Of a DNA stretch of 64,000 nt, positions 23,025 through 59,142 are shown piece by piece (the first letter of the stretch is position 1; each line of letters begins with the position of its first letter). This DNA comes from an uncultured Thermodesulfobacteriota bacterium (GTDB taxonomy: Bacteria > Desulfobacterota > DSWW01), in the NCBI GenBank assembly GCA_964479535.1, contig CAYZMM010000004.1, positions 70,459-134,458 of the forward strand, read 5' to 3'. Below the pieces are notes generated by a model that saw only the letters and a program-made list of their open reading frames with translations, was not told where the DNA came from and did no database searches. The position numbers and the translations under genes were made by a program.

Positions 23025-23099
23025 TTGCGAACCGGTCCCTATCTCGCTTGCGCATTGAAATGATTCAAGATAAGGGTCGTGTGTTCTCCCTGGGGCGCC

Positions 23100-26600: not shown

Positions 26601-26742
26601 CGTGGCCGCATCTATCACAGAACCTGCTTTCCGGTGTATTCAGGTTTGCGCATTGAGGGCAGGAGAGTTCCAGTTTGCTCCCGCACGCCTTGCAGAAGGT
26701 GGCCCCCTCTCTGTTTTCGGCGTGGCAAGTGGGGCACTTCAT
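23602..26742 (-). pseudogene. Zn-ribbon - cyclase - AAA/STAND - TPR paralog 2, disrupted by an in-frame TAG at 25039-25041 and an in-frame deletion of about 243 bp in the cyclase domain
   Basis: The two ORFs 25042..26742 and 23602..25038 share a frame and are separated only by TAG, where copy 1 has CAG. The cyclase domain lacks roughly 81 aa present in copies 1, 3 and 4. Confidence 0.75.
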
Positions 26743-26778
26743 CCAGGTCCTCCAAGCCGATTCAGGCGAATCGATGCC

Positions 26779-27183
26779 CTATAGCAATTTCACCTGTCTC
26801 AGGGCCTTGACCTTCCTGTGAAGCTTCTTGTCTGACGTGACGAGATCACACGCAAGCCGCCTTGCCAGCTCGACATATGCGGCATCGTAGAGGGTGATTC
26901 CATAGCGTCTGGACAATCGGATGGCGCTCGAGAACTCCTCGAATCCAAGGTCAAAGACCTGGAGGTCAAAATTCCACAGCATGGAGAACACCTCGGAGAC
27001 CGCCCCTGCATCCAGCCTTGTCCGCGTTAGGAGCACGTTGGCCGCTTCATAGAAGAACAGGTCCGGCACGGCGATCGGCTCTTCTCCGGAAACGTGCACG
27101 TCCCTGTAACGAAGGGCTCGATCACTGCCTTCCTCGTTCTCAAAGATCCACTTGAGGACGACCGATGCATCCAATACGATCAT
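26779..27183 (-). CDS. vapC: VapC PIN-domain toxin
   Basis: MIVLDASVV...YEAANVL...YDAAYVELA...TSD gives the PIN acidic residues. A 4-nt overlap with phd is present. Confidence 0.8.
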   Translation of the reverse strand: MIVLDASVVLKWIFENEEGSDRALRYRDVHVSGEEPIAVPDLFFYEAANVLLTRTRLDAGAVSEVFSMLWNFDLQVFDLGFEEFSSAIRLSRRYGITLYDAAYVELARRLACDLVTSDKKLHRKVKALRQVKLL

Positions 27184-27458
27184 CTGCTGTCTCTCATCTC
27201 GCGGATTGCCCCCGTCACATCCGTTCGGCTGGTCTCTTTCCCATGTCGCTCTTTCCACTTCTCCATGCCTGCACAGATCTCCTGAAGTTTCCGGCCCCTC
27301 TCCTTTTTCAGTATCCTCTCCTCATACTCATCTACGGAAATGATGACCGCGAGGGGCTTGTTTGCCCTTGACACGATGAAGCGCTCCTTTCGGTCGTGAA
27401 CCTCGTTCAGAATGCTTCCGAGCTTCTTCCTTAGGTCCAGCGCAGTCAGTCTCTTCAT
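27180..27458 (-). CDS. phd: Phd/YefM-family antitoxin
   Basis: 93 aa. FIVSRANKPLAVIISVDEYE is classic for Phd/YefM. Confidence 0.75.
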   Translation of the reverse strand: MKRLTALDLRKKLGSILNEVHDRKERFIVSRANKPLAVIISVDEYEERILKKERGRKLQEICAGMEKWKERHGKETSRTDVTGAIREMRDSR

Positions 27459-27480
27459 TGTCTTCTCCCTTCTGGGTTCA

Positions 27481-27510
27481 ACTATACTATGAGCTATCAT
27501 AGTCACTATG
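27481..27510 (-). promoter_or_regulatory. putative phd-vapC operator: inverted repeat CTATGA-N4-TCATAG plus ACTAT direct repeats immediately upstream of phd
   Basis: The palindrome at 27487-27502 lies 30-50 nt upstream of the phd start codon. Confidence 0.35.
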
Positions 27511-27732
27511 TCAATGAGATCTGGCCTGGGCTCCCTCCGAATGCGCCCTAAGACGTGATGCACGCGAGGGCCTCCCGGGCGCGGGTGAGCCAGTAGCTCC
27601 AGGGGGCGTTCATTTCCAGGCATACGGCTTCCGCTTTTTTCAGGTTACCCACGGCTTCTTCTCTTCTCTCCGGATCGGCGAACAGCCCCCCGAAGCGGTA
27701 GGGTGGATGAAGCGAAGCGAATCCGCCACAGT

Positions 27733-30700: not shown

Positions 30701-31116
30701 TCGCCGGTGTACTGGTTCACCGTTCCCTCGAAACGGTGCACGCCGTCCGCAAGGATCTGGAAGAACCGGTCGAGGATCCGGTGCCACTCCTCCGGGTCGG
30801 TCTGTTCAGCCATTTCCATCGAGCCCTTTACGTCTGCGAAGAGGACGGTGACCACTTTCCGTTCGCCCTCGATCGAGCTGCGGGTCGTGAGGATCTTTTC
30901 GGCAAGGTAGTTCGGGGTGTAGGACCGAGGTTGGGAGTAGTCGACGGCGGGCGTTGCTACGGGCTTGGTCAGGTCATGGGCGCAATCGCCGCAGAACTTA
31001 TCGTTCGGAAGAACTTCAGCCCCGCACTGAGGGCAGGCGAGGACGAGTCTCGCCGCACATGCCCGGCAGAACTTCTTGTTATCCGGGTTGTCCGTCTGGC
31101 ACTGAGGGCATTTCAT
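27733..31116 (-). CDS. double Zn-ribbon - class III nucleotidyl cyclase (CHD) - AAA/STAND NTPase - TPR protein, paralog 3 (intact, 1127 aa)
   Basis: Two CPxC...CxxC ribbons are followed by a full CHD domain, a P-loop NTPase and long TPR-like C-terminal helices. No interruptions are seen. Confidence 0.85.
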   Translation of the reverse strand: MKCPQCQTDNPDNKKFCRACAARLVLACPQCGAEVLPNDKFCGDCAHDLTKPVATPAVDYSQPRSYTPNYLAEKILTTRSSIEGERKVVTVLFADVKGSMEMAEQTDPEEWHRILDRFFQILADGVHRFEGTVNQYTGDGVMALFGAPIAHEDHAQRACYAALRLSEGLQRYAAELKREKGLRFSVRMGLNSGEVVVGKIGDDLRMDYTAQGQTVGLAARMEQLAEPGKAYLSEHTAKMVEGLCRLGDLGRFNVQGVQEPLRVFELQGVGPLRTKMEVAERRGLSRFVGRQREMEQLQRAWEAAQAGRGQIVAVLGEAGVGKSRLLYEFKGQLTSGCRVLEGLSVSHGKAYAYLPLLELLKGYFRIGLEDDERRRREKVTGTVLTLDRTLEDTLPYLFTLLGIGDLTGPLEQMDPQIRRQRTLEAVKRVLVRETLDQPCVLVFEDLHWIDSETQAFLYVLVDSVATARLLFLVNYRPEYGHGWGSRTCYTQLRLDPLGDVEARELLTALLGDEASADRTELERLIMAKTQGNPFFLEELVQTLVEEGVLAGEPGHYRLKRSPGELHIPATVQGVIGARIDRLPSREKDLLQTLAVIGKEFSLGLIRAVAGEAEEYLSRELSHLQAAEFIYERPAFPDPEYTFKHARTQEVAYGSMLRERRGAIHERVGQAIEKVYSETLDEHYQELAHHYGRSANTPKAAEYLRLAGEQAVARSAYGEAIDRLRQALELLKTLPETRERDELELSLQSALGQALDVTETFASVEAEQAYLRARDLAECLGNASQVFAALTGLRAGQQVRAEHDKARLLAEELLRVARESRDPGQLLRALHAMSGTSFYRGEFSEAREHLEEFLGLYDPKKHRGHDYLSASANVGVWGLFFFSWTLVSLGYPVQALKRALEGLALARELSDPFSESVALFCISRIYLERRDSKASLQTAEAVINLSSEHGFAYYLAFGAWLRLEALTEEGQLQEGIAGMRSVLQGMRARGAVLGSSWFLALLARAHRKAGQVEEGVALVAQGLEFVTKTDERMMEAELHRVKGELLLGHTPADQVGAEASFRDALEVARRQSAKSYELRAATGLARLWQQQGCKQKARELLAPVYHWFTEGFDTRDLKEAKALLEELT

Positions 31117-31548: not shown

Positions 31549-34296
31549 ATGGACCGATTCTACGGTTGGATCGTCCGCAGGCCGAAGCTGATTCTCCTCC
31601 TCCTCGTTCTTCCCACAGCATTCCTTGCCCTTCAGGCGCGACACATCCGGTTGGACAGCTCCATCGAGAGCCTCCTGCCGAGGGAAGACCCTGAAAAGAA
31701 GTACTACGAAGAGATTCGTCAACTCTACGGCAGTGACGAGATCGTCGTGATCGGCCTCATGGCGGACAACGTCTACAGGCCGGAAACCGTTCAGAAGATC
31801 GAGCGGATCACGGAAAAGATCCGAGAGATGCCCGAGGTGAAGAGCGTTGCGAGCCTCACCAACGCGCAGGATGTGATCAAATCCGTTGCCGAGGACACCC
31901 TGCTCATCCCGGAGATTCCCACCACCGAGGAAGGATGGGAAGAGGTCAAGGGCAGGGTCGCCGAGCACCCCGTCTATCTGAAGAACCTGGTCTCCCCCGA
32001 TGGTCGCGCGGCCGCGATCAACGTCACCTTCCTGGAGAGTGTGTCGGACGAGGCGTTCCTGCGCCGCGGGATCGACGAGAGAATTCAGAAGATCCTGGAC
32101 GCGGAACAGGGGCCGGAGAAGCTCTACTACACGGGGCTTCCTCGCTTCAAGGTCCACGTGGTCCAATCCATGCGGGGAGATTTGAAGTCCTTTCTCCCCC
32201 TGGTGCTGCTCTGCATCGCTGTCGTCATGTTCGCAAGCTTCCGCTCTCTGCGTGGGGTGATCCTGCCTGCGGTTACCTCCGTCGTAGGCCTGACCTGGAC
32301 CCTCGGGATCATGGTGCTGGCCGGAAGTTCCCTGAGCCTGGGGAGCATCACACTTCCCCCTTTGCTCCTCGTCCTGGGCACGGTCTACTCCCTGCACGTG
32401 GTGGCCGAGTACTACGAATTGGCCCGGCCCGGCACGCCGGCGGGCGAGGTGGTCCTCGAGACCCTCAGAAAGACCGGAATGCCCGTCCTGATTACGGCAC
32501 TGACCACCGCCCTGGGCTTCGCGGCCCTGGCCGTGAACCGCATCGTCAGTATCCGGGAGATGGGCCTCTTCTCCGCAGCAGGCATCCTGTTCGCCTTCCT
32601 GCTCTCGGTGACCCTTGTGCCGGCGATCCTCTGCCTGTTGCCGCTGCCCAAGAGGCGGGCAGACCGGTTTTCGCCCGTGTTGACCTCGACACTTCAACGG
32701 ATAAGCCGCCTGGACATCCGATACCGCAGGCCGATCATCCTTGCGGGAATCCTCATTGCGGTCCTCGCAGCCTGGCAGATTCCCTCGATCATGGTGGACT
32801 CGAACTTCCAGTCCTTCTTCCGCAAAGACGACCCGATCCGCAAGGCCAGCGATGTCATCAACGAGCATCTTGCCGGAAGCTCTGCCTTCTACGTCACCAT
32901 CGACGGCGAGAAGACGGGCCTCGTGAAGAAATGGGACACCTTGAAGCGAATCAAAGAGCTTCAGCTCTACATCGACGCTTTGCCCGGAATCGAGAAGACG
33001 ATTTCCCTGGTGGACTACTGCGAGATCCTGGACAGAGGGATTCAGGCCGTGCCCCCCTGGGAGGAACCGCCCGAGCCGCAGGAGCCGGAGCCCCAGACGA
33101 CCTTCTGGGAGAATCCTTCCCAGCTCGACGGCGTCATGCAGCTGGTGTTCCTGAATGCGAAGAGCATATCCGGCGTTGCGAACCATCCCGTGTTCTCGCG
33201 GACGAACATCATCGTTCGCACCTCCCTCACCCACGCCAGCGATGTGGCCGCCACGGTGGAGAAGATCGAGGCGTTTGCCGCCGAGACCTTTCCCCCGGAG
33301 CTCACCGTGAGGACCACCGGCGAGTTGATCCTTCACACTCGCACGAGCGGCGACATCGTGAGGGGGCAGATTCAGAGCCTGGGGCTTGCCGCCGGGATCA
33401 TCTTCCTCGTCATGTCGACCATGTTTCTCTCCGTTCGGATCGGCCTGATCGCCATGGTTCCGAACCTCTTCCCGATCATGGTCTTCTTCGGGCTCATGGG
33501 CGCCTCAGGGGCCGTCCTCAGCCTGAGCACGAATATCATTGCCGCGATTGTCCTGGGGATCGCCGTGGACGATACCATCCACCTCATGTCACGCCTGAGT
33601 TCCCAGGTCAGGGCAACGGCCGACCGGGAAGAGGCCCTCCTTCACACCTTCTCCACCGTGGGGAAGCCCGTCTTCTACACGTCCGTGATCCTGTTCCTGG
33701 GCTTTCTCACGCTCTGCGTCTCCTCCTTTGTGCCGATCCGGGAATTCGGCATTCTGGCCGCCTTCACGATGATCGTGGCTCTTGGCGCAGATGTGGTCTT
33801 GTTGCCCGCCATCCTGTCGACCACGCGGTTCATCACCCTGTGGGATCTGCTCTATCTCAAGCTGGGCCGGGATCCGCACAAGGTCATTCCCCTCTTTGAC
33901 GGACTGAGGCCCTTGCAGGCCAAGATCGTCACCCTCATGGGCGAACTCAAGACCTTCACCCACGGCGATGCGATCGTCCGTCAGGGGGATATGGGCAATG
34001 AAATGTTCGTTCTGCTCAAAGGCACGGCGGAGATTCACATCCAGGCCGAAGGCCGGTCCAGACGCATTGCCGGGCTCGAGAGAGGGGACGTCTTTGGAGA
34101 AATGGGACTGCTTCGCCATCATGAACGCACGGCAGACGTCGTTGCTTCCGAAGATGTGGAAGTCCTGGCCGTAAACGAGCGCTTCCTCTCGCGCATCAAG
34201 CGCCGGTACCCGCGAATCGGCGCCCAGATCTTCTTCAATGTGGCAAAGATCCTCAGTGACCGCCTCGAAGAGGCAAGAAAGGTCCCCTCGGTATAG
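31549..34296 (+). CDS. RND-superfamily MMPL/HpnN-like exporter (two SSD/12-TM halves) fused to a C-terminal cyclic-nucleotide-binding (CAP-family) domain
   Basis: 915 aa with MMPL-type TM/periplasmic-loop topology. The last roughly 120 aa carry FGEMGLL...R..TADVVA, the cNMP phosphate-binding cassette. Confidence 0.75.
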   Translation: MDRFYGWIVRRPKLILLLLVLPTAFLALQARHIRLDSSIESLLPREDPEKKYYEEIRQLYGSDEIVVIGLMADNVYRPETVQKIERITEKIREMPEVKSVASLTNAQDVIKSVAEDTLLIPEIPTTEEGWEEVKGRVAEHPVYLKNLVSPDGRAAAINVTFLESVSDEAFLRRGIDERIQKILDAEQGPEKLYYTGLPRFKVHVVQSMRGDLKSFLPLVLLCIAVVMFASFRSLRGVILPAVTSVVGLTWTLGIMVLAGSSLSLGSITLPPLLLVLGTVYSLHVVAEYYELARPGTPAGEVVLETLRKTGMPVLITALTTALGFAALAVNRIVSIREMGLFSAAGILFAFLLSVTLVPAILCLLPLPKRRADRFSPVLTSTLQRISRLDIRYRRPIILAGILIAVLAAWQIPSIMVDSNFQSFFRKDDPIRKASDVINEHLAGSSAFYVTIDGEKTGLVKKWDTLKRIKELQLYIDALPGIEKTISLVDYCEILDRGIQAVPPWEEPPEPQEPEPQTTFWENPSQLDGVMQLVFLNAKSISGVANHPVFSRTNIIVRTSLTHASDVAATVEKIEAFAAETFPPELTVRTTGELILHTRTSGDIVRGQIQSLGLAAGIIFLVMSTMFLSVRIGLIAMVPNLFPIMVFFGLMGASGAVLSLSTNIIAAIVLGIAVDDTIHLMSRLSSQVRATADREEALLHTFSTVGKPVFYTSVILFLGFLTLCVSSFVPIREFGILAAFTMIVALGADVVLLPAILSTTRFITLWDLLYLKLGRDPHKVIPLFDGLRPLQAKIVTLMGELKTFTHGDAIVRQGDMGNEMFVLLKGTAEIHIQAEGRSRRIAGLERGDVFGEMGLLRHHERTADVVASEDVEVLAVNERFLSRIKRRYPRIGAQIFFNVAKILSDRLEEARKVPSV

Positions 34297-42834: not shown

Positions 42835-43548
42835 TCAGGAGGATCTTCCGGCCGACGACTGTGAGATCTCCAGGCCCACCAGCCGTGCGACGAGCACCAC
42901 GAGATAGATCTGGCCGATGATCGCTTCCAGGACGGAAAGGTTCTTCGCGACCGCCGTCCCTCCTGTGAGGTCACCGTACCCGAGGGTGGTCAGGGTGGTG
43001 AAGCTGAAGTAGAGGGCCTGGCCGGCGCCGGTTCCGTAGAAGGCCCTCGGGTCTCCCTCCGGGATGACCTCGCCGCCCGCGAGGAATGCCCCCGGATCGA
43101 GGAACTCCAGCAGGGAATAGAGGGTCGCGAAGATCACCCCGAGAAGGAGGTACGAACAGAGGGCGGCGCAGATCGTGTCGAAGGTCACCCGCTTCGCCTT
43201 GAGCACGTAGGAGAGGATGGTGCCTCCGATGTAGAGGAAGAAGAGGATGGCAAGGATGTGTCGCGCCTCGGCATAGGAGGCGGCCGGGTCGAAGTGGTCG
43301 AGCCAGATCAAGGCCACCGCAGGCACCAGGAGCGCAAGTGCGGTCAAGAGAGAGGACAGCTTCCCGCTCCCCGAGTAAGCGCCCACGATCAACATGGCGG
43401 TGGCCAGAAGATCATAGAGGGTGAAGCCCCGATCATCCGATCCCAGGAAGGGGCCCAAGAAGATGAAGACCATCAGGAAGACCAACAGAAAGAAGAAGCG
43501 CCTTTCTCTCGAAAACACCCAGTTCTTCACGATCGATCCGAACGGCAT
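42835..43548 (-). CDS. potassium channel family protein (pore-loop TTLGYGD)
   Basis: It contains the selectivity-filter sequence TLGYGD, flanked by TM helices. Confidence 0.7.
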   Translation of the reverse strand: MPFGSIVKNWVFSRERRFFFLLVFLMVFIFLGPFLGSDDRGFTLYDLLATAMLIVGAYSGSGKLSSLLTALALLVPAVALIWLDHFDPAASYAEARHILAILFFLYIGGTILSYVLKAKRVTFDTICAALCSYLLLGVIFATLYSLLEFLDPGAFLAGGEVIPEGDPRAFYGTGAGQALYFSFTTLTTLGYGDLTGGTAVAKNLSVLEAIIGQIYLVVLVARLVGLEISQSSAGRSS

Positions 43549-48906: not shown

Positions 48907-49166
48907 CCGGATTCCTCCTCTGTTGTGCCTCGTCCGACCCTGGCCAGCCCACGGGACAGCGATGATGTCTGTGTACCACAGACATCACGGCGATAGCAAA
49001 GCATCATGGAAGAAAGAACCGTTCGATTCGCCCGGTTTGACACGCCCCTTTCACCTGTCTATAGATCAACCTGATCCGAGGCAACATCCAAGGCAGGTAG
49101 AATCCCTTTCCTGGAAACACGAACGGTGCTCAGCACCGATGGCTGCAGCACATCAAGGGCGATGAA

Positions 49167-51737
49167 ATGACACCCTCGAACCTGGACCGAAACATCTTTT
49201 CCACGCTGCGCCCTGCGTCCCGGCTGGCTCTGTCTCTGTTGCAGGTGAGCGTACTTGCACTTGCCGCATGCGGCGGCGACGACCGCGCCCCGGCCAACGG
49301 AACCGCCTCGGGAAGACTGATCGTTCCTCCCGGCCAGGTCCTGGAGGAGGAACCGAACCAGACGATCGACCGGGCACAGAGGGTGGAGGACACCTGGCTG
49401 GTCACGGGAAGCGCCTCGAGCGACGATCCGGGCTTCTCGCCGCCCGGATTCCCGGACGTGGAAGTGGAGGACCTGTACCGGGTGAGCTCGAGCGGACGGA
49501 TCCAGGTGATTCTCACCATTGCGGAGGACGATCTCCTTGCAAACGACCTGGACCTGCTCCTGCTGGATCTCGCGGGCAACCCTCTGGACGGATCGGAAGG
49601 GGTGGCCTCCACCGAGATGATCGACACCACGGGACCCGGGGAATTCCTGATCGGCGTCCGCGGCTTCCAGGGCGAGAGCGCCTACTCGCTTTCGTTCACC
49701 CCGCTCGAGGCCCTCCCTGCGGGGGACCGCGGGATCCTTCCGCCGGGTGCGGATTTCGTGCCCGGCGAAATCCTGGTCCGGTTCCGGTCGGAAGCGCCGG
49801 GCGCAGCCCGAAGCGACCGGGCCGTCCTCTCGCGCCTAGGGCTCGCCGCGAAACGGTCTTTGCCCCGCGGCGTGCAGATGCTCGCCGTATCCCTGCCGGA
49901 CCGGCTCCGTCAGGACGCTTCCGGCGTACGGAAGATCTTTCAGCACCGGAGCGACGTCGCTCTTCTCAAGGCGCTGACACTGGACCGGATCCGCGATCTG
50001 CGAAGGGACCCGCAGGTCGCGTATGCGGAGCCGAACTTTATTCGCAAGCCTTGTCTCGCACCGAACGATCCGGGCTTCGAACTCCAGTGGCACTACCGGC
50101 TGATCAACCTCCCGGAGGCGTGGGACATCAGCACCGGGTCGGAGGAGATCACCGTCGCCGTGCTCGACAGCGGGGTCCTGTCGAATCACCCGGACCTGAC
50201 GGGCCGGCTGACAGAGGGCTACGATTTCGTGAGCCGGATCGACAACGCGAACGACGGGGACGGAAGGGACCCGGACCCGGAGGACCCGGGGGACGATCCG
50301 GAAGGAGAAAACAGCTCCTTTCACGGAACCCATGTGACCGGGACCGTGGGGGCCGCTACGAACAACGGGAACGGTGTGGCCGGCGTGACCTGGAACACGA
50401 GAATCATGCCCCTTCGTGTGCTGGGCGTGGAGGGAGGGGCGGATTCGGACATCCTGGAGGCGATCCGCTATGCGGCCGGCCTGAGCAACAGCACGGGAAC
50501 CGTACCGGACAGGCCGGCCAGGGTGCTGAACATGAGCTTCGGCGGTCCCGGCTTCAGCCAGACGGTGCAGGATGCCGTCCTGGACGCAAGGGCGGAGGGC
50601 GCGATCCTGGTGGCTGCGGCAGGGAACGGCAGCACCCGGAGGGCGTCCTATCCGGCATCCTTCGACGGGGTGGTCTCGGTTTCGGCGGTGGACCTCAACC
50701 TGCAGTTGGCCCCCTACTCCAATTTCGGCTCCGGCATCGATGTGGCCGCACCCGGCGGCGACACCGGCGTGGACCTGAACGGGGACAGCTTCGGGGACGG
50801 GGTTCTGAGCACCCTGGGAGATGAGCAGGGCGACTTCTTCTATCGCTTCTTTCAGGGCACGTCCATGGCGGCGCCCCATGCAGCCGGGACCTTTGCCCTG
50901 ATGCTCGCGGTCAACCCGAACCTGACCCCCGCGGACATCGACGATCTGCTGACCGGGACCCATCCGGACACGACGGTTCGGATCACGCAGGACCTCGGGC
51001 AGGCGGGCCGGGACGACCTGTACGGACACGGAATGGTTGACGCAGCGCAGGCCGTCCTGGCCGCCCAGTCCATTCCCGGAGGCGGAGGCACACCGCCGAC
51101 GGGTTCGATTCTCGCCGTGTCCACGAACCTGCTCAACTTCGAGAACTTCCTCGAGCAGCTCACCTTCAAGATCACGAACGCGGGCATCGGTACGTTGCAG
51201 GTCACGAGCATCACGGACAACGCCCCATGGCTCACCCTGTCCCCCGCATCCGGCGGTGCGCCTCTTGCCGTGAAGGCAACCGTGAACCGTTCCGGCCTTT
51301 CGGACGGCGAGCGCTCCGCAACGATCCAGGTGTCTTCGAACGCGACCCAGGGAAACCGGATCGCCACCCTCCAGGTCGAGATGCGGGTCGGCGGCAAGAC
51401 CATGGGCGACGTGGGCGAGGTCTTCGTCATCGTGCTGGAACCCACCTCGTCGGACCCGGTGGCGCAGGCGGAAACGGACGCGTCCCAGGGCTACGCCTTC
51501 ACGACGCCAGGACTGGCGCCCGGCAGCTACTCGTTGATCGCCGGAACCGATCTGGATGACGACGGCTTCATCTGCGACATCGAAGACGCATGCGGCTTCA
51601 GTCAGGGGCTGGTGACCATCAACGCCGGACAGAACACCCCCGGCATCGATTTCGTGCTGGGCACGATCGTCTCGCCCCAGAGTGTTCCCCTCGGAGCCAC
51701 GGACCTCCGGGAGAGACGGCACCCCGGAATTCGCTGA
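49167..51737 (+). CDS. secreted S8 (subtilisin-family) serine peptidase with C-terminal extra domains
   Basis: D (AVLDSGV), H (HGTHVTGT) and S (GTSMAAPH) catalytic motifs are all present. A signal peptide is present. Confidence 0.85.
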   Translation: MTPSNLDRNIFSTLRPASRLALSLLQVSVLALAACGGDDRAPANGTASGRLIVPPGQVLEEEPNQTIDRAQRVEDTWLVTGSASSDDPGFSPPGFPDVEVEDLYRVSSSGRIQVILTIAEDDLLANDLDLLLLDLAGNPLDGSEGVASTEMIDTTGPGEFLIGVRGFQGESAYSLSFTPLEALPAGDRGILPPGADFVPGEILVRFRSEAPGAARSDRAVLSRLGLAAKRSLPRGVQMLAVSLPDRLRQDASGVRKIFQHRSDVALLKALTLDRIRDLRRDPQVAYAEPNFIRKPCLAPNDPGFELQWHYRLINLPEAWDISTGSEEITVAVLDSGVLSNHPDLTGRLTEGYDFVSRIDNANDGDGRDPDPEDPGDDPEGENSSFHGTHVTGTVGAATNNGNGVAGVTWNTRIMPLRVLGVEGGADSDILEAIRYAAGLSNSTGTVPDRPARVLNMSFGGPGFSQTVQDAVLDARAEGAILVAAAGNGSTRRASYPASFDGVVSVSAVDLNLQLAPYSNFGSGIDVAAPGGDTGVDLNGDSFGDGVLSTLGDEQGDFFYRFFQGTSMAAPHAAGTFALMLAVNPNLTPADIDDLLTGTHPDTTVRITQDLGQAGRDDLYGHGMVDAAQAVLAAQSIPGGGGTPPTGSILAVSTNLLNFENFLEQLTFKITNAGIGTLQVTSITDNAPWLTLSPASGGAPLAVKATVNRSGLSDGERSATIQVSSNATQGNRIATLQVEMRVGGKTMGDVGEVFVIVLEPTSSDPVAQAETDASQGYAFTTPGLAPGSYSLIAGTDLDDDGFICDIEDACGFSQGLVTINAGQNTPGIDFVLGTIVSPQSVPLGATDLRERRHPGIR

Positions 51738-51788
51738 GACTCGGTTCAGCGAGAGGCAAGCAGGTTCAAACCGATCGATCCAGGGAGG

Positions 51789-52877
51789 ATGAACATGAAA
51801 GCTCTGCTGAGTGTAATGGGCTGTCTGCTGACCGTCCTTTTGTGTGCAGGCCTCGTTCAGGGGCAGGAGCAAGGAACGTCCGAAAGAAAGTGGGTGGTCG
51901 GCACGAAGCATGCCCCCCCCTTTGCCATCAAGAACGAAGACGGGTCCTGGAGCGGCATCAGCATCGACCTTTGGGGCCGGATCGCGAGGGAGCACGACGT
52001 GGATTATGAACTCAAGGAGTTCGATCTGGAAGGCTTGTTGCAGGCCGTCGCGTCCGGCTCCGTGGATCTGGCCGTGGGGGCGCTCACCATGACCCCGGAG
52101 AGGGAGAAGCTCTTCGACTTCACCCACCCGTTCTACACGACCGGGCTGAGCATTGCGGTCTCTTCGCAGGGGAAGAAGAACTGGCAGAAGGCCCTGGAGC
52201 GTGTCTTCTCCCCACGGTTTCTCCGCGCCGTCGGCGGGCTGGCCCTCCTTCTGCTGGCCATCGGCGTCCTGGCATGGCTCGCCGAACGCAAGCGAAATCC
52301 GGATCACTTCGGTGGAAGCGCCCTGCGCGGAATCGGGTCCGGGTTCTGGTGGTCCGCAGTCACCATGACCACCGTCGGTTACGGGGACAAGGCTCCGGCC
52401 ACCTTTCTGGGCCGCCTCCTGGGAATGGTCTGGATGTTCGCAGGCATCATCATGATCTCCGGTTTCACGGCGGCCATGACGTCGGCCCTCACCCTCACGC
52501 AGCTCGAGTCAAAGGTGAGCGGCCCCGAAGATCTCCCCAAGGTATCGGTGGGGTCGGTCCCCGGATCCACGAGCGCCTCCTATCTCGGTCGAGCCGGCCT
52601 CTCCTTCAGGGAGTACGACTCCCTGGAAGAGGGCCTGGGCGCCATTGCCGCAGGAGACCTGGACGCCGTGGTCTACGACGCCCCGATTCTTCGCTACCTG
52701 GCGACCAAGGATTTCAGAGCGTCCGTGCGGGTCCTGGAGACGACCTTCACACGCCAGGACTATGCCTTCGCCCTGCCTCGCAAGAGCCCTCATCGCGAAA
52801 CCCTGAACCTGGCCATGCTCGAGGTGATCAAGACCGACGCGTGGGAGGACCTTCTCCGCACCTATCTGGGGGAATGA
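51789..52877 (+). CDS. GluR0-like prokaryotic ionotropic glutamate-receptor homolog (SBP_bac_3 ligand-binding domain interrupted by an M1-P-M2 K+ pore, TTVGYGD)
   Basis: A signal peptide is followed by lobe 1 of the binding domain. Two TM segments flank a TVGYGD pore loop. Lobe 2 follows. Confidence 0.7.
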   Translation: MNMKALLSVMGCLLTVLLCAGLVQGQEQGTSERKWVVGTKHAPPFAIKNEDGSWSGISIDLWGRIAREHDVDYELKEFDLEGLLQAVASGSVDLAVGALTMTPEREKLFDFTHPFYTTGLSIAVSSQGKKNWQKALERVFSPRFLRAVGGLALLLLAIGVLAWLAERKRNPDHFGGSALRGIGSGFWWSAVTMTTVGYGDKAPATFLGRLLGMVWMFAGIIMISGFTAAMTSALTLTQLESKVSGPEDLPKVSVGSVPGSTSASYLGRAGLSFREYDSLEEGLGAIAAGDLDAVVYDAPILRYLATKDFRASVRVLETTFTRQDYAFALPRKSPHRETLNLAMLEVIKTDAWEDLLRTYLGE

Positions 52878-53178
52878 CCCCTGCACGGGCGGAGGCCCTG
52901 GCGCCTTCCCGTGCGATGCCCGGGGATTGCCGCGTCGCCTTCGGCCCCGCGCAATCTCCCGCACCGAGTTCGGGGACAGCCGCCGAACTGCCAATATTTG
53001 TTCACAGTTCCGAGTTCGGTGGCTGTCCCCGAACTCCCCCCCGAACTCCCCCGAACTCCGCATTTCTATTTTTTCCGCTATGCTTCCTGCTCTTGCCTTT
53101 GCCCTGTCAACGTTGACCTTTCGCAAAGTGTGATTACTTTATCTTCAGTTTACCTTTGTGAGAGGGTTCGCAGCAGAG

Positions 53179-54174
53179 ATGAAGAGCACAGACTATTACA
53201 AGGACCTGGGCGTATCCAAAAACGCCACCCAGGACGAAATCAAGAAGGCTTACAAGCGCCTCGCCAAGAAGTACCACCCGGATCGAAATCCAGGGGACAA
53301 GGAGGCGGAGAACCGGTTCAAGCAGATCTCCGAGGCGTACCGCTGTCTGTCCGAGCCTGAGAAGCGAAAGCAGTACGACATGTTCGGTCAGACCGGCTTT
53401 CAGGCCGATCCGGGCTTCTGGGGAAGGGCTCCGGGCAACGCGTCGGGAGGCACCTACACATGGTCCTCCGACGCCGGATACAGCGGATTCGACCTGAAAG
53501 ACCTCTTCGGCCAGATCTTCGGCGGAGGCGGCAGGAGCCGAGGCCGATCCGAGGGCTTTGCCGGCGGCAACCCCTTCGGGGCCGGAACGGGTTCTTACGA
53601 TTTCGGTTTCGGGTTCGACCCGGGCCCTGCACCGGCCCGCGACCTGGAAGCGGATGTAACGATCGGTTTCGAGGAAGCGATCCGGGGCGGAACGCACCGC
53701 ATCTCCCTGCAGAGAAACGCGGGGGCCGGAACGGAAAGCCTGAACGTGAAGATCCCGGCCGGTGTGGCCGACGGCGGCAGGCTGCGAATCCCCGGAAAGG
53801 GGGCCGCCGGGCCGGAAGGCAGGAACGGGGATCTCCTCCTTCGCATTCACGTGATCCCCCACAAGGTGTTCCGAAGGGAAGGAAAGGACCTCCACATGGA
53901 CCTTCCCGTGACGGTAAGCGAGGCCGCACTGGGGGCGAAAGTCGAGGTGCCGACCCTCAACGGGAAAGCAACCGTGACGATTCCGGCCGGAACGCAAAGC
54001 GGGGCCAAACTCCGCTTGAAGGGAAAGGGTGCACCGGACCCGAAAGGAGGAACCCCGGGTGACATGTACGTGCACACGCGGATCGTTGTGCCGAAGAGCA
54101 CCGATGCAAAGGAGAAGAAGATCTTCGAGACCTTGAAGGAACTGGAAAGCGATCCGCGGGCGGGGATGTTCTAA
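53179..54174 (+). CDS. DnaJ-class co-chaperone without zinc finger (CbpA-type)
   Basis: A J-domain with HPD (KKYHPDRN), a G/F-rich linker and C-terminal CTD I/II. No CxxCxGxG repeats are present. Confidence 0.8.
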
Positions 54175-55199: not shown

Positions 55200-57842
55200 T
55201 CAACCCTCCCCTCCTTCGCCCTCTCCGGGTTCCGCCTCGATCTCCCCTTGTTCTTCGGGCACCAGACCGGCCGCCTCGACCTTCTTCGCCGCCTCCTCCA
55301 TCCTGGCGAGTGCCTCGGCATGCCGCCGCGCCGCCCTGTCGGCAAGCTCCATCACATCCAGGGAGGCCGACTCGATGTCCGAGCCTTCCTCGTGGTCCGC
55401 ACCGGCATCGCCCGCTTCCTTCCACTCCCTCAATTTCTCCTCTGCGTACCCACGGGCCTCGGCCGCTTCCTCTTCCGCCTTCCGGACCTCCCGCTTCGCC
55501 CTGGCAAAGGCATCGAGCGCCGCGGCGATCTCGGCGGACTTCCCCTCCTCCGGTTCTGCATCCAGGGGGATGTCTTCTGCGGCCAGCCCGATGGCGGTCA
55601 CCGGCAGGGGAGCGAGAAGATCTTCGATCCGCCCGCCAAAGGGTCCGACCAGGCGGTTTCCGCTCAGACGGAAGGGCAGGAAGACGAGGGCGGCATTTCC
55701 CGAATGCTCCGCCACGGCCTCCAGGGTCGTGCCGACCACGACCTCCGGTTCCGCCGTGATCCTGAACTCCTCGAGGGTCTTGCGCAGATCCTCGACCGTG
55801 GATTCATATTGCGCGTCCGTCTCCACGGACCCCTCCCCAGCCCCATCGGTTTCGGCACCCTCCTCGGCACCCGATTCGGCAGCCAGGACACGGAGCCTTG
55901 CACCGCTCCATTCCGGACACTTCGTCATGAGATAGGCAAGAAGGAGCATCAGCCGGGAGGTCCGGTCTTTCCACCACCACACATCGATCCGTCGCTTGTC
56001 CGGGGGGAGTTCCGCCAGGGATGCCCAGGCGTCTTCCTTTGCGTTCAGGATGAGAATGTTGCAGCCCAGCCGGAAGAGGGCCCGCAGGTTGCGTCCATAG
56101 ATCTCCGTGCTCTGGGGCTGCGCCTCTCCGGGAAGCTGCTCGAGCCAGTTGAGAAGGATCGTATTCGCACGAATCGGACCGATCCCGTAAGCTTGAACCA
56201 GCGTACTCGCCCCCACGCTCAGATTCGGAGCGGCCACGGCAAGCGAAAAGGCGCCGGGATGAAATCGTGCCAGGTCCTTGCGAAGCTCCGCCTCCACCTC
56301 CTGCCGGCGCTTCATCATCTTCACCCCCTCTCCCTCCAGGATCTTGACCAGTGTGGTCAGCCCGCTCGGGCCTTCGAGCCAGGAGGCGAACCGAAGAAGG
56401 GGCGCCCGCCGTTCCGGATTCTCCGAAAAGACGAGCAGCTCCGGACGCCAGTCCCTCGGATGCTCCTGCTCCCTGGCCGCGCCGAGGAGGTGCTCCCGAA
56501 CCCGCTGAAGATGGTACGACCGTCGGCTGTCGGCCCAGCGTGCAGGTCCTGCCGTGCGCTTGAGGTACTGGTAGATGGAGAAGAGGACGGCGATGGCGAC
56601 CAGCCCCGCCGCCACGTCGATGGCGAGCATGGCCCCGAGGCAGGCGACCCCGCCCAGGAGGCTGAGCCTCGCGTCGAACCAGCGGAATCGGGGGCGAAAG
56701 GAGGGGCTCGCCGCCCTGGCCTCGTAGAAGGTCGCGTAGTTGAGGAGACCGTAGGAGATGAGGAAGAACATGGAGACCACGGGCGCGATCAGGTTCAGCT
56801 TCCCGAGGGCGATCGTTGCGAAGGCGATCCCGCAGGAGAGCAGCACCCCCCGCCGCGGGTTTCCCGCGGCTCCGGCCCCCTTGGCAAAGGGCAGCAGGAA
56901 GGGAAAGATGCGATCCTGCGCGAGGGACTGGAGGATTCGCGGCGCGCCCAGGAAAGAGGCCATGCCGGAGGACAAGGTCGCTGCGATCACCCCCGCGTCG
57001 ATAACGAAACCGATGCTCGCCAACCGCTTCATGGCCGTGTAGTCCCGGCTGAGCACCTCCCGGGGCAGCCCCCCGGCGAAGAGGAGGGCGACGATGAGAT
57101 AGACGAGGGCCGAAAGCCCGACCGCGAGAAAGGTGCCGAGGGGCAGGCTCTTGCCCGGGTCTTTCAGGTCGCCGGACATGCTGACGCCCTGCGTGAATCC
57201 CGTAACGGCGGGGAAGAAGATGGCGAAGAGCACCCAGAAGGGAGGCCCGGACTCGGGCGCGCTCCAGTTGCTCACCAGCAGGCCGGAGTCCCAGCGGGTG
57301 AAACCACCGACGAAAACGGAGACGAGGGCAAGCACCAGGATCGTCATGACCGCGTACTGAAACCTCGTGGCCCAGTCCGCGCCCAGCCACGCAAAGACGA
57401 AGAGCAGGGAGGCGGCGAGAGCCGCAATGATTTGAGGAACGTACCTGCCCGAGAAGGGAAGTACGTCGGTCAGGGCCTCGCCGAAACCGATGCAGTAGAA
57501 GGCGATCGACACCGATTGGGCCAGAAAGAGCACGATACCGATGGCCCCTCCGAACTCGAGCCCCAGGGTGCGGGAGATGAGGTAGTAATCTCCCCCCCCC
57601 TTGACCTTCAGGTTCGTGGTGATGGCCGAAAGGGAAACGCTGGTCAGGACCGAAATCGCATTCGCCAGGCCGATCATGATCAAGGCGCGGCCCAGGCCCG
57701 CGTTGCCCACCACGTACCCGAGCCGGAGGAACAGGATGATCCCGAGGATCGTCAGGATGCTCGGCGTGAAGACCCCGGCGAAGGTCCCCAGCTTGCCCTC
57801 CTGCGACCCGGACCCCGCCTTCTGGCTCGTACCTTCCACCAT
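55200..57842 (-). CDS. cation-chloride cotransporter (SLC12/CCC, APC superfamily) with a large cytoplasmic C-terminal domain
   Basis: GTFAGVFTPSILTILGIILFLRLGYVVG...GGDYYLISRTLGLEFGGAIG is near-identical in pattern to NKCC/KCC TM1-TM3. The protein is 880 aa. Confidence 0.7.
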   Translation of the reverse strand: MVEGTSQKAGSGSQEGKLGTFAGVFTPSILTILGIILFLRLGYVVGNAGLGRALIMIGLANAISVLTSVSLSAITTNLKVKGGGDYYLISRTLGLEFGGAIGIVLFLAQSVSIAFYCIGFGEALTDVLPFSGRYVPQIIAALAASLLFVFAWLGADWATRFQYAVMTILVLALVSVFVGGFTRWDSGLLVSNWSAPESGPPFWVLFAIFFPAVTGFTQGVSMSGDLKDPGKSLPLGTFLAVGLSALVYLIVALLFAGGLPREVLSRDYTAMKRLASIGFVIDAGVIAATLSSGMASFLGAPRILQSLAQDRIFPFLLPFAKGAGAAGNPRRGVLLSCGIAFATIALGKLNLIAPVVSMFFLISYGLLNYATFYEARAASPSFRPRFRWFDARLSLLGGVACLGAMLAIDVAAGLVAIAVLFSIYQYLKRTAGPARWADSRRSYHLQRVREHLLGAAREQEHPRDWRPELLVFSENPERRAPLLRFASWLEGPSGLTTLVKILEGEGVKMMKRRQEVEAELRKDLARFHPGAFSLAVAAPNLSVGASTLVQAYGIGPIRANTILLNWLEQLPGEAQPQSTEIYGRNLRALFRLGCNILILNAKEDAWASLAELPPDKRRIDVWWWKDRTSRLMLLLAYLMTKCPEWSGARLRVLAAESGAEEGAETDGAGEGSVETDAQYESTVEDLRKTLEEFRITAEPEVVVGTTLEAVAEHSGNAALVFLPFRLSGNRLVGPFGGRIEDLLAPLPVTAIGLAAEDIPLDAEPEEGKSAEIAAALDAFARAKREVRKAEEEAAEARGYAEEKLREWKEAGDAGADHEEGSDIESASLDVMELADRAARRHAEALARMEEAAKKVEAAGLVPEEQGEIEAEPGEGEGGEG

Positions 57843-57852
57843 CCCTCTTTCC

Positions 57853-59142
57853 TCACTGCATGTAGAAACGCAACTCGATGAAGAAGGTGAACGGGTAGGT
57901 CCCGTATTCGCTGTTCAACCGAAAATCCGACAGGGCGAGCCCTCCCGGCGCGAGAACGAAGGTGGGCGCTTCCCCCACGGGGATCGTGCATCCGGCCGTG
58001 GCCACGGCGTTGTCCGCGACCGAGTATTCGAGAACCGGGTTCAGGGTTGCGGACGGGTCGGTCAGGTTCACGAGCACGTTGAGCATCCCCATCAGGATCG
58101 GGAAGATCTCGTAGCTTGCCCCAAGGCCCAGGTTGTGGCGGCCGAGCAAGAGGGTCCCCCGCGAAAGAAGCCGGTCGTCGATCAGGGACTGGTTCAGGTC
58201 TTCCACATTCACGGCGCCCGCACCGTAGTAATAATACTCTCCCAGCAGGTAGGGGCCCTTGCCCGGAAAACGGTAGTCCAACCCGACGAGGACATCCACA
58301 TAGTCGGAGCTGTCCTTCACGTGGTTGAACAGGATCTCGCCGTGAATCCCGATCCCTGAACGCCCGAGATCTCCGGCAAAGTCGCCGCCTCCGACGATGT
58401 CGGTCTGCACCCAGCCACCGAGGACGGAGATGTCGTAGTCCTCGAACAGGGTCTTGAACTTCCCGACCCCGGCGGACCGGTCCGGGTCCGCATCCGGCCC
58501 GAAGGCCCACACGAACTCCGCCTGCGTGAAGGCGCCCAGTGCGAAAAGGAGCCGTGCCGCGTCGTTTCCCGCCTTGAACTCCCGGTCCACCTGAAGCGGA
58601 CCGAAGGGGCTGAACAGGTCGACGGGCTGCCAGAACCGGCCGGTGCCCCACGTGATCGCCTGGCGGCCGAAGACGAAGTCGAGTCCCCACAGGGAAAAGG
58701 TGGCGGCGAGCCGGTCGAACGCGTGGGCCCACAGGAAGTCCTCGGTCTCTTCGATGTCCCAGGAGAGCGAAGTGTATCGGTAGAGGCTCCCGGTGTCGGT
58801 CACCGTGACGAACCCGGTCAGGCCCAGGGCCGTTTCCGGCGGGTTGATGAAGGCGAAGTGCTGATAGTGGACCTCGAGGGCAAGTCTTTCGTAGAGGCCC
58901 AGGTCCAGCATCATCCGGCCGCGGGCGAAGTTCGCGGCCTGGGTGCGATCCTCCACGAAGGGAATCTCATAGTAGCGGTTGCCCAGGAAGAGGTTCTTGA
59001 AGGTGGCTCCGAGATCCAGGAAGAGGGTGTCCGATTCGTAGAGCTGCCTGGCTTCGGACTCGGGGGGCAAGAGGAGAGCAAGGCTCCCGAGAAAGATCAG
59101 GAGCGGGAAGCGACCCCGGCTGAATCGGAAGACCCGCCTCAC
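57853..59142 (-). CDS. putative outer-membrane beta-barrel protein (signal peptide; C-terminal aromatic-rich strand)
   Basis: A signal peptide, alternating hydrophobic beta-strand pattern and C-terminal ...FIELRFYMQ. Confidence 0.4.
   Translation of the reverse strand: MRRVFRFSRGRFPLLIFLGSLALLLPPESEARQLYESDTLFLDLGATFKNLFLGNRYYEIPFVEDRTQAANFARGRMMLDLGLYERLALEVHYQHFAFINPPETALGLTGFVTVTDTGSLYRYTSLSWDIEETEDFLWAHAFDRLAATFSLWGLDFVFGRQAITWGTGRFWQPVDLFSPFGPLQVDREFKAGNDAARLLFALGAFTQAEFVWAFGPDADPDRSAGVGKFKTLFEDYDISVLGGWVQTDIVGGGDFAGDLGRSGIGIHGEILFNHVKDSSDYVDVLVGLDYRFPGKGPYLLGEYYYYGAGAVNVEDLNQSLIDDRLLSRGTLLLGRHNLGLGASYEIFPILMGMLNVLVNLTDPSATLNPVLEYSVADNAVATAGCTIPVGEAPTFVLAPGGLALSDFRLNSEYGTYPFTFFIELRFYMQ

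Follow-up and report, generated by a model that had tools for sequence, protein, structure and literature searches.

Channels of the GluR0 family are K+ channels opened by an extracellular amino acid and are kin of the glutamate receptors of the brain. This known bacterial family, described in 1999 and 2010, has thousands of members, and the gene at 51789-52877 of the window (the whole stretch of 64,000 nucleotides that was analysed) is an ordinary, intact member of it. Its product very probably belongs to the GluR0-type ('Group 1') prokaryotic iGluRs and is a K+ channel gated by an amino acid, working by the mechanism proposed below, gating and physiology included; the definition of the Group 1 class and of its conserved Arg and Asp is that of Ger et al. 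2010 (PMC2950845).

Synechocystis sp. PCC 6803 GluR0 (Slr1257; 1ii5/1iit/1iiw) is built like the window channel, with a signal peptide, S1, M1-P-M2 carrying TTVGYGD and S2, without NTD, M4 or CTD and with the ligand-contact Arg and Asp conserved. The two differ in host, that of the window channel being non-cyanobacterial, and in length, with 360-362 aa in the window channel against at least 397 in Synechocystis GluR0 as inferred from the PhoA fusion site S397 (PMC13099474). Moreover, the pore helix reads FWWSAVTM in the window channel, which is more Kv-like, and MWFALVTL in Synechocystis GluR0, and the binding domain of the window channel has closer kin in the Nostoc homologue and in GlnH-type proteins than in Slr1257. 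With the Nostoc punctiforme GluR0 core (2pyy) the channel shares the pocket motifs PPF, SIDLW, T-x-T-x-ERE-x-FDF, GST-x-x-YL and DAVV(Y/F)DAP, at only about 35 % identity over the lobes; the 2pyy entry is without the membrane part and the pores are not comparable. No full-length GluR0-type structure was found in searches of the PDB.

Three other groups of proteins share parts of this design. The eukaryotic iGluRs (AMPA, kainate, NMDA and plant GLR) follow the same S1-pore-S2 logic and the whole channel chain superposes on their LBD-TMD structures, but with sequence identity of about 20 % in the Foldseek alignments; the window channel lacks their amino-terminal domain (no ANF_receptor match), M4 (no third TM) and C-terminal tail, and has a canonical TTVGYGD K+ filter where they have a Q/R/N-site cation pore. 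As regards the KcsA and Kv pores, the channel aligns to Kv2.1, Kv3.1, Kv1.x and KcsA from the outer helix through the pore helix and TTVGYGD to the inner helix, with E values of 1e-9 to 3e-11, and the pore-helix/filter string is nearly identical to that of Kv2.1 and close to those of Kv3.1 and KcsA as well; in contrast with these pores, the module would sit in the opposite membrane orientation and be gated by an extracellular clamshell, not by voltage or pH. Finally, among GlnH/HisJ-type proteins the joined S1 and S2 match GlnBP (1ggg/1wdn) over its full length with an E value of 5e-25 and the binding domains of GlnPQ (6h30) with one of 3e-35. In the channel, however, this fold is broken by a pore module of about 115 aa, and there is no ABC permease or ATPase to partner it.

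Gene boundaries, domain order and topology

The open reading frame 51789..52877 (+) is complete, encodes 362 aa counted from the first ATG and ends with a stop codon at 52875-52877, in exact agreement with the coordinates of the earlier note, in which the start requires a small correction. Translation probably begins at the second ATG (51795), giving 360 aa, since a Shine-Dalgarno-like GGGAGGA overlaps the first ATG (51789) and since the database protein 100 % identical to the channel, as well as its 79-83 % relatives, are all of 360 aa.

Pfam places SBP_bac_3 on residues 37-361 (E 1.7e-23) and, inside it, Lig_chan on 152-251 (8.6e-14), Ion_trans_2 on 182-235 (5e-13) and Lig_chan-Glu_bd on 37-125 (5e-12), all above the curated cut-offs, and the protein ends one residue past the end of SBP_bac_3. 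Its hydropathy profile displays an N-terminal signal-like segment and exactly two transmembrane segments (centres at about 156 and 219) that flank the filter, with none past S2. The nesting of the Pfam domains and the hydropathy confirm that the binding fold is split by two TM helices around TTVGYGD, as had been read from the sequence earlier, and the GluR0-type order S1-M1-P-M2-S2 is present, as seen from the nested domains and from the matching of 2pyy in two pieces.

The N-terminal signal peptide (51789..51863, +, residues 1-25) is called from its sequence features, K4, a hydrophobic core at 5-22 and a probable cleavage between VQG and QEQ that follows from the -3/-1 rule; its Kyte-Doolittle hydropathy peaks at 2.49 at residue 14, and the structural model has a helix at 2-20 followed by a low-pLDDT linker. 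A lipoprotein signal was also considered and rejected: 'SVMGC' fits a lipobox, but its Cys, which is residue 12, or residue 10 when counted from the second ATG, lies too near the N-terminus. The S1 half of the amino-acid-binding clamshell follows at 51885..52172 (+, residues ~33-128), with Lig_chan-Glu_bd at 37-125, and aligns to residues 5-95 of 2pyy. The pre-M1 helix and M1 occupy 52182..52286 (+, residues 132-139 and ~142-166), with a hydropathy peak of 2.44 at 156 and alignment to GluR0 M1; the corresponding AlphaFold helices are 130-137 and 140-164 in 360-aa numbering. Next come the re-entrant pore helix FWWSAVTM and the K+ filter TTVGYGD (52320..52388, +), the filter itself being 52368-52388, residues 194-200, and the model pore helix 176-192. 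M2 (52404..52502, +, residues ~206-238) has its hydropathy peak at 219 and a model helix at 204-236, aligns to GluR0 M2 and corresponds to M3 of the eukaryotic receptors; its last stretch is the conserved S-G-F-T-A-A-M-T-S-A-L-T. The S2 half of the clamshell (52518..52871, +, residues ~244-361) contains the G-S-T start of helix F and aligns to residues 105-216 of 2pyy.

From the signal peptide and the two-TM layout, the channel is predicted to be inverted with respect to KcsA, with both lobes periplasmic and the P-loop on the cytoplasmic side; a periplasmic pore loop, which the earlier note had named as evidence against its reading, is not what this layout suggests. PhoA fusions indicate the same inverted topology for Synechocystis GluR0, with some fusion values not statistically significant (PMC13099474). 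The pre-M1 segment, which would be in the periplasm, contains 6 Lys/Arg, against the positive-inside rule, though it lies downstream of a translocated domain.

Sequence similarity, fold and conserved residues

The best solved relative of the channel is the Nostoc GluR0 binding core 2pyy, which matches S1 and S2 in two pieces (E 1.6e-30). Once joined, S1 and S2 align in one stretch to 2pyy (2e-34), to Slr1257/GluR0 (1ii5/1iit, 6e-21; residues 8-224 of 1ii5) and to GlnBP. The alignment to Synechocystis GluR0 that had been proposed as a check was thus obtained at the sequence level, the binding core being covered end to end and the M1-P-M2 module being 44 % identical (E 2e-28) to the reference membrane-module sequence taken from bioRxiv 10.1101/2021.01.27.428399. 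The AlphaFold model has a pLDDT of 83.5 overall, above 90 in the binding-domain blocks and moderate (63-85) in the membrane part. Foldseek aligned this model over about 370 columns with AMPA and NMDA LBD-TMD cryo-EM chains (E ~1e-22, TM-score up to 0.70), and, consistent with the joined-lobe alignment, the two lobes act as a single, contiguous binding domain; lobes lying apart in 3D, which the earlier note had also named as evidence against its reading, are not indicated.

Conservation was followed in an alignment of 40 relatives of 50-82 % identity. Arg105 of S1 (AGG, 52101-52103; 362-aa numbering), the contact of the ligand alpha-carboxylate, is invariant (40/40) and aligned to the ERE motif of 2pyy, and Asp297 of S2 (GAC, 52677-52679; 362-aa numbering), the contact of the ligand alpha-amino group, lies in a V-Y-D likewise found in 40/40 and aligned to the (F/Y)DAP motif of 2pyy; T100/T102 and the G-S-T that opens helix F vary little or not at all. 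In the pore (360-aa numbering), W185, W186, A188, V189, T190, M191 and T193-K199 are identical in all 40 sequences, S187 and T192 being slightly less strict (38/40 and 39/40 respectively). The family consensus at the end of M2 is S-S-F-T-A-A-I-T-S-S-L-T, compared to S-G-F-T-A-A-M-T-S-A-L-T in the window channel. When the latter is aligned by hand with the eukaryotic gate motif SYTANLAAFLT, the S, T, A, L and T positions agree. Taken together, the domain order, the two TM segments and P-loop, the K+ filter, the signal peptide, the Arg/Asp pair, the similarity to the Synechocystis and Nostoc GluR0 and the fold support the earlier assignment as a GluR0-type ligand-gated K+ channel.

Homologues of the channel number 4,632 at E <= 1e-10 and are spread across many phyla, and nearly all of the 120 homologues listed have this set of five Pfam domains; a relative is carried by at least 564 species representatives. 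Among relatives with a name, those nearest to the channel and to the neighbouring SLC12-type protein come from MAGs of Desulfobacterales, Thermodesulfobacteriota and Nitrospira and reach no more than 53-67 % identity.

Going by the automated annotation of its relatives, the gene would encode the solute-binding part of an ABC transporter for amino acids, or a binding protein fused with a permease. SBP_bac_3 is indeed the top Pfam match, the best NCBIfam models are GlnH and Lys/Arg/Orn binding protein, and relatives are filed in databases as 'transporter substrate-binding domain-containing protein' or 'ABC-type amino acid transport substrate-binding protein'. However, with 91 bits where 303 are required and 86 where 256 are, the NCBIfam scores fall far short of the curated cut-offs, the membrane segment between the lobes resembles Ion_trans_2/Lig_chan and the pores of Kv channels and KcsA and not an ABC permease, and no amino-acid ABC permease or ATPase adjoins the gene, the ABC/FtsX genes at 59-62 kb being MacB-type and kept in relatives without the channel. 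ABC-type annotations of this class were already judged erroneous by Ger et al. (PMC2950845), and an ABC function is here hardly credible.

Genomic neighbourhood of the channel gene

The channel gene is immediately flanked by a subtilase gene, upstream with a 51-nt gap, and by DnaJ/GrpE. It had been described in the earlier note as part of a loose cluster of ion-transport genes, together with a K+ channel gene at 42835-43548 (-) and an SLC12-type gene at 55200-57842 (-). Both neighbours are real, the former encoding 237 aa with Ion_trans_2 and a TTLGYGD filter and the latter AA_permease and an SLC12 C-terminal domain, so that the phrase holds as a description; it does not hold as a functional module, given close relatives without the channel and none of 80 more distant loci with a relative of either neighbour in the fetched flanks.

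A co-functional role of the three genes would have some basis, since all three are genuine ion-transport genes, since locus L081, where the channel is only 58 % identical, and L087-L089 have retained the order S8 - channel - DnaJ - GrpE ... SLC12, and since SLC12-type cotransporters, like K+ channels, have a bearing on cell volume. On the other hand, the three genes are on different strands, with the neighbours 8.2 kb and 2.3 kb away and unrelated genes in between. Two collinear close relatives, L084 and L085 (77-81 % nucleotide identity), keep the K+ channel and/or SLC12, DnaJ and GrpE without the channel gene: in L085, collinear on both sides, an unrelated 456-nt segment replaces it, and in L084 the subtilase is missing as well, yet the 237-aa K+ channel, DnaJ, GrpE and SLC12 are retained. 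Furthermore, tblastn of the fetched flanks (up to 10 kb) found a relative of the K+ channel or of SLC12 at 0/80 genomic loci of other lineages, and a motif scan of the same 80 loci gave no second K+ filter motif in a real ORF. A co-functional ion-transport cluster is therefore considered quite improbable.

The breakpoints of blastn collinearity delimit a variable segment with the channel gene at 51689..53173, present in the window, L087-L089 and L081, and no degraded remnant of the gene was detected in relatives lacking it, L085 included. The gene is dispensable in close relatives and, therefore, its role is accessory. Downstream of the stop codon, a 24-nt inverted repeat (52966..53036; 96 % complementary, 23-nt loop) precedes three CCCCGAACTCC units and a T-run; it is part of a small repeat that occurs dispersed, and it may act as terminator for the transcription unit of the channel. 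Scans of 48.9-55.2 kb returned no sigma-70 promoter and, on the + strand, no terminator; searches for tRNA genes, for Rfam families (40-64 kb) and for housekeeping markers in the large ORFs were negative.

Proposed mechanism and MscS-type neighbours

In the mechanism favoured here, the signal peptide would be cleaved and S1 and S2 would then fold together in the periplasm as a bilobed GlnH/SBP_bac_3-type binding domain, with the M1-P-M2 segment between the lobes forming a K+-channel pore placed upside-down, its turret and filter mouth to the cytoplasm and its helix-bundle gate to the periplasm. By analogy with GluR0 and the eukaryotic iGluRs, the pore would be built of four subunits. An L-amino acid would be held by Arg105 through its alpha-carboxylate and by Asp297 through its alpha-amino group, whereupon closure of the clamshell would tug on the short S1-M1 and M2-S2 linkers and open the gate at the conserved SGFTAAMTSALT at the M2 end, allowing K+ to move down its electrochemical gradient. 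The channel would likely serve to link an amino-acid signal from outside with fast K+ flux, the membrane potential and the control of cell volume. For Synechocystis GluR0, published results comprise K+ uptake activity, a requirement for the soluble domains and an involvement in the volume response to KCl upshock (PMC13099474).

As to the ligand, the pocket motifs agree with those of the binding core of Nostoc GluR0, which makes L-glutamate, or else a wide range of amino acids, the best guess. Glutamine-binding proteins (6h30, 1ggg) and GluR0 cores score about equally against the binding domain, and the prediction goes no further than an alpha-amino acid with glutamate-like pocket motifs. A K+ channel of GluR0 architecture could also have a clamshell sensing a ligand other than a proteinogenic amino acid, or could be a constitutive or tension-modulated K+ leak in which the clamshell serves mainly for assembly. 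Synechocystis GluR0 complemented K+ uptake in E. coli without added ligand, with membrane tension raised by the authors as a possible input (PMC13099474), and the GluR0 pore can, when engineered, be gated by a different binding protein, for example EhuB, which binds ectoine (bioRxiv 10.1101/2021.01.27.428399). Against a ligand that is not an amino acid, however, R105, T100/T102, D297 and the opening G-S-T of helix F show little or no variation and match the Nostoc core, and it is because of these amino-acid-holding residues that an alpha-amino acid is argued for; such alternatives are considered unlikely.

Across the family, an MscS-type mechanosensitive channel gene was observed at <=2 kb from the GluR0-type gene at 12-13 of 83 genome loci, a local enrichment of about 40-fold in the genome set, and at 18 of 80 metagenome loci; among the metagenome loci with full flanks, an MscS-family neighbour was present at 12/42. 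Hosts in which the two genes adjoin include Alteromonas lipotrueiana (L016), Zhongshania aquimaris (L051) and Novosphingobium album (L080). The window channel gene has no adjacent MscS gene. No earlier report of this gene adjacency was found in the literature.

The adjacency fits an osmotic or glutamate-release role, glutamate release being an established role of MscS/MscCG. Tentatively, and as a possibility that is rather doubtful at present, the two channel types could form a two-part osmotic and signalling device. On swelling, the MscS-type channel would let out cytoplasmic glutamate, which, on binding to the periplasmic clamshell, would open the K+ path of the GluR0-type channel, balancing charge and speeding turgor relief, or spreading a signal to neighbouring cells. 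In the host of the window, the channel would have to act with MscS genes elsewhere in the genome. In plants, an interdependence of MSL10 and GLR has been reported (PMC8442888).

The main value of the window gene itself is one of correct annotation, from ABC-type names to GluR0-type amino-acid-gated K+ channel, within a family that draws evolutionary interest because glutamate receptors have their prokaryotic root in it. Being short (~360 aa), strongly conserved and abundant across phyla, its clade with a Kv-like pore could be a convenient minimal structural target. The family-level MscS adjacency is the more interesting result. If the two-part device were true, the adjacency would be the bacterial counterpart of the plant MSL10-GLR relation and the pairing of mechanosensor and glutamate receptor would be ancient. 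Together with the 2026 evidence of GluR0 in the cell-volume response and with glutamate export by MscS, it yields a testable hypothesis for the purpose of bacterial glutamate receptors, a question standing since 1999.

Architecture and affiliation of the channel protein

The ORF listing of the window places a 362-aa ORF at exactly 51789..52877 (+), the translation of which contains TTVGYGD (residues 194-200, nt 52368-52388). The sequence directly 5' of this ORF is CCAGGGAGGATGAACATGAAA, and a Shine-Dalgarno-like GGGAGGA, 6 nt ahead of the second ATG, overlaps the first. Given the position of this motif and the length of 360 aa found in a 100 %-identical protein of the public collection and in relatives at 79-83 %, the gene most likely starts two codons in, at 51795, which leaves the finding unaffected. 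Pfam assigns SBP_bac_3 to residues 37-361 (E 1.7e-23) and, nested within it, Lig_chan to residues 152-251 (8.6e-14), Ion_trans_2 to residues 182-235 (5.2e-13) and Ion_trans, as well as Lig_chan-Glu_bd to residues 37-125 (4.9e-12), all above curated cut-offs. A 19-residue Kyte-Doolittle scan displayed three strongly hydrophobic segments, one N-terminal with a peak of 2.49 at residue 14, followed by VQG|QEQ, and two with peaks at residues 156 and 219 that flank the filter; no hydrophobic segment was seen after S2. From Pfam nesting and hydropathy, the predicted order is signal peptide, S1, M1, P, M2 and S2, where S1 and S2 are the halves of the binding clamshell and M1/P/M2 the TM helices and pore loop between them, with no fourth helix, amino-terminal domain or tail. 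The earlier note's description of an SBP_bac_3 fold split by two TM helices around TTVGYGD is thus confirmed by ORF, Pfam and hydropathy.

By sequence, the best solved relative is 2pyy, an 'ionotropic glutamate receptor bacterial homologue' (E 1.6e-30), matched in two pieces corresponding to S1 (query 35-125) and S2 (244-355). When S1 and S2 were fused via a short linker and aligned as one construct, 2pyy was matched in one uninterrupted stretch (2e-34), the Synechocystis Slr1257/GluR0 cores 1ii5 and 1iit were aligned unbroken (6e-21, residues 8-224), and so were glutamine-binding proteins, 1ggg and 6h30 among them. This single-stretch alignment shows S1 and S2 to be the halves of one predicted binding-protein fold. 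For the membrane part, the Synechocystis GluR0 module printed within a chimera sequence (preprint, bioRxiv 10.1101/2021.01.27.428399) was used as BLASTP reference and is 44 % identical to that of the window over 100 residues (E 2e-28), with FSP(R/F)F, WLAE(R/H)(K/R)(R/K)NP(D/E)(H/Q)F, TTVGYGD and G(R/Q)L common to both. A search with the channel core by itself gave the pore modules of Kv2.1, Kv3.1, Kv1.x and KcsA as the closest matches (E 3e-11 to 6e-9), the pore helix and filter of the core reading FWWsavTMTTVGYGD compared with FWWatiTMTTVGYGD in Kv2.1. The GluR0-type identification made earlier is correct in view of domain order, 2pyy/1ii5 alignment, membrane module and K+ filter, and a GluR0-type, amino-acid-gated, K+-selective channel is the best-supported reading of the sequence.

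In an alignment of 40 sequences, 50-82 % identical to the query, W185, W186, A188, V189, T190, M191 and T193-K199 of the pore helix and filter (numbered from the second ATG) are invariant, with S187 kept in 38/40 and T192 in 39/40. The same alignment displays an invariant S1 Arg (AGG at 52101-52103; R105 when counted from the ORF start), an invariant S2 V-Y-D (D297, GAC at 52677-52679) and, at the M2 end, an almost invariant S-(S/G)-F-T-A-A-I-T-S-x-L-T, similar to SYTANLAAFLT, the eukaryotic gate motif. 'Group 1' prokaryotic glutamate-receptor channels, as described by Ger et al., combine S1-2TM-S2 with a K+ filter, the S1 Arg and S2 Asp and, in most cases, a signal peptide (PMC2950845); all these sequence features are present in the window protein. 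Among 8,000 candidates scored, 4,632 proteins were found at E <= 1e-10, and nearly all of the 120 listed have a five-domain Pfam signature in common. A relative is encoded in at least 564 species-representative genomes, with hosts including Desulfobacterota, Gemmatimonadota, Planctomycetota, Verrucomicrobiota, Ignavibacteriota, Methylomirabilota, Alpha- and Gammaproteobacteria. Their source names are generic ('ABC-type amino acid transport substrate-binding protein', 'transporter substrate-binding domain-containing protein') and are misleading, because the NCBIfam binding-protein models score far under their cut-offs (91 bits for the channel protein vs a cut-off of 303). The channel gene is an intact, ordinary addition to a known, very common GluR0-type family.

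Predicted fold, topology and gating

An AlphaFold2 model, for which the 40-sequence alignment was the input, reached a mean pLDDT of 83.5, with values above 90 in the binding-domain blocks and of 63-85 in the membrane part. Foldseek against the PDB aligned ~370 columns of this model to AMPA/NMDA LBD-TMD cryo-EM chains (E ~1e-22), covering both binding and membrane domains, with the highest TM-score (0.70) for the active-state GluA1/2 chain 7qhb_B. Since the alignment spans both domains, the model does not bear out the refuting condition named in the earlier note, binding lobes that are separate in 3D.

By homology, the signal peptide and the two TM helices after it would leave S1 and S2 together in the periplasm, and the M1-P loop (ERKRNPDHF..., four Lys/Arg) with the filter mouth on the cytoplasmic side, so that the pore would be inverted relative to KcsA. 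PhoA fusions of Synechocystis GluR0 indicate exactly this inverted topology, some of the values not being statistically significant (PMC13099474). The sole feature against it in the window protein is the Lys/Arg-rich segment before M1, with six positive charges. As a proposed mechanism, an alpha-amino acid gripped by R105 and D297 would close the clamshell, and short linkers would carry this closure to the bundle crossing that faces the periplasm at the M2 end. Because the pocket motifs of the Nostoc core (PPF, SIDLW, T-x-T-x-ERE-x-FDF, GST-x-x-YL, DAVV(Y/F)DAP) are also found in the window protein, the best guess for the ligand is glutamate or a broad amino-acid spectrum. We infer specificity, tetramer formation and gating.

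Gene order around the channel gene

The immediate neighbourhood of the channel gene comprises a subtilase gene (49167-51737, +) 51 nt upstream, a DnaJ-like gene (53158-54174, +) and GrpE. The order subtilase, channel, DnaJ, GrpE and, farther on, SLC12 is kept in the related locus L081 (channel 58 % identical) and the metagenome loci L087-L089 (82-83 %). The earlier note had also proposed a loose ion-transport cluster with a K+ channel gene (42835-43548, -) and an SLC12-type transporter gene (55200-57842, -). Both genes are real, the first having Ion_trans_2 and a TTLGYGD filter and the second, with widespread relatives, AA_permease and an SLC12 C-terminal domain, but a functional unit is unsupported. 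Two other close relatives, L084 and L085, are collinear with the window on both sides (72-81 % nucleotide identity) and lack the channel gene. In L085, an unrelated 456 nt (L085:15001-15456) stands instead of window 51689-53173; in L084 (14647-14820), window 48984-53173, with subtilase and channel, is missing and the 237-aa K+ channel, DnaJ, GrpE and SLC12 are retained. No channel-gene remnant was detectable in either relative. The subtilase is itself variably present, a contig with an 82 %-identical channel gene having no subtilase. Moreover, a K+ channel or SLC12 relative was found in 0/80 loci from other lineages, over fetched flanks of up to 10 kb, and likewise 0/80 have a plausible ORF with a further K+ filter. 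The channel gene, present or absent in collinear relatives, is therefore a polymorphism in a conserved backbone, and the apparent ion-transport cluster is inherited gene order, not a co-inherited module.

The DnaJ-like gene encodes 338 aa without a CXXCXGXG zinc-finger domain; in L081, L084, L085 and L087-L089, the syntenic orthologues have 392-407 aa with this domain, and blastn skips ~190 nt of the relatives between window 53719 and 53724. A TTGACC - 16 nt - TACTTT element conserved 5' of the gene (window 53095-53135; L085 ~15010-15050, reverse strand), read off the printed sequences and missed by the promoter scan, suggests that transcription of DnaJ/GrpE may not depend on the channel gene but start from a promoter of its own. 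On the 3' side of the channel gene lies a 24-nt inverted repeat (52966-53036, 96 % complementary, 23-nt loop), after which CCCCGAACTCC occurs three times in tandem, with a T-run (53027-53060). A third copy of the arm, with three mismatches, is found in intergenic 1546-1569, the chance expectation being zero matches. The element resembles small dispersed repeats of the REP type and is not conserved in relatives.

Elsewhere in the window, 19290-31116 (-) holds three signalling genes, paralogues of one another, that combine an adenylate/guanylate cyclase domain with AAA_16; zinc ribbons or TPR occur in some of them, and the middle paralogue is apparently split into two adjacent ORFs (25042-26742 and 23602-25038). 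Beside them, 31549-34296 (+) encodes an MMPL/sterol-sensing-type transporter that carries a fused cyclic-nucleotide-binding domain at its C-terminus. Between the SLC12 gene and MacB-type ABC/FtsX genes, a 429-aa ORF (57853-59142, -) gave no Pfam match, as did its positional counterparts of 417-425 aa in L081, L084 and L085.

MscS-type genes beside channel genes across the family

Neighbour ORFs of the related loci were clustered and an HMM was then built from the MscS cluster. MscS-type mechanosensitive channels, long MscK-like forms included, are the largest recurrent neighbour family, their identity being confirmed by Pfam in 7/7 representatives tested. In the genome set, 13 matches are no farther than 2 kb from the channel gene (272 kb of flank) vs 1 at 2-10 kb (807 kb), a local enrichment of roughly 40-fold over an outer-bin rate that equals the usual genomic density of such genes. 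An MscS gene thus lies within 2 kb in 12-13/83 genome loci (L001, L003, L007, L013, L016, L020, L023, L030, L041, L051, L078, L080, L083), from Desulfatiglandales, Methylomirabilis, Ignavibacteriales, Alteromonas, Acidobacteriota, Magnetococcales, Gemmatimonadota, Planctomycetota, Zhongshania and Novosphingobium; in L003, L007 and L051 the two genes share a strand and are directly adjacent or overlapping. The independent metagenome set (L087-L166) replicates this, with an MscS-family gene within 2 kb in 18/80 loci (12/42 where at least 1.5 kb of flank was available on both sides), two to three paralogues in some loci, and densities per 100 kb of 9.0 at 0-2 kb, 4.3 at 2-4 kb and 0 at 4-6 kb; these rates, covering the 80 best matches per collection, describe this clade, and the counts ignore phylogenetic relatedness. 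The HMM found no MscS-family match within the 64-kb window, and no published link between GluR0 and MscS genes was found in the literature searched.

The second most recurrent neighbour is a CorA-type Mg2+ channel gene, in 5/71 loci (L001, L020, L023, L029, L047; Pfam-confirmed for L029). In the long-contig context of L082, a TrkA_N/TrkA_C (K+ transport regulatory) protein (L082:2655-4298) is encoded 3.7 kb upstream of the GluR0-type gene, which shows another K+/osmotic-homeostasis gene near a member of the family.

Direct physiological data come only from Synechocystis, in which GluR0 resides in the plasma membrane, slows cell shrinkage upon KCl upshock and is proposed by the authors to be activated by effluxed glutamate; it also rescues a K+-uptake-deficient E. 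coli strain and depends on its soluble domains (PMC13099474). Glutamate export is an established function of MscS-type channels (PMC12541555, PMC6110860), and their place beside channel genes suggests that the bacterial receptor may sense glutamate released through a mechanosensitive valve.
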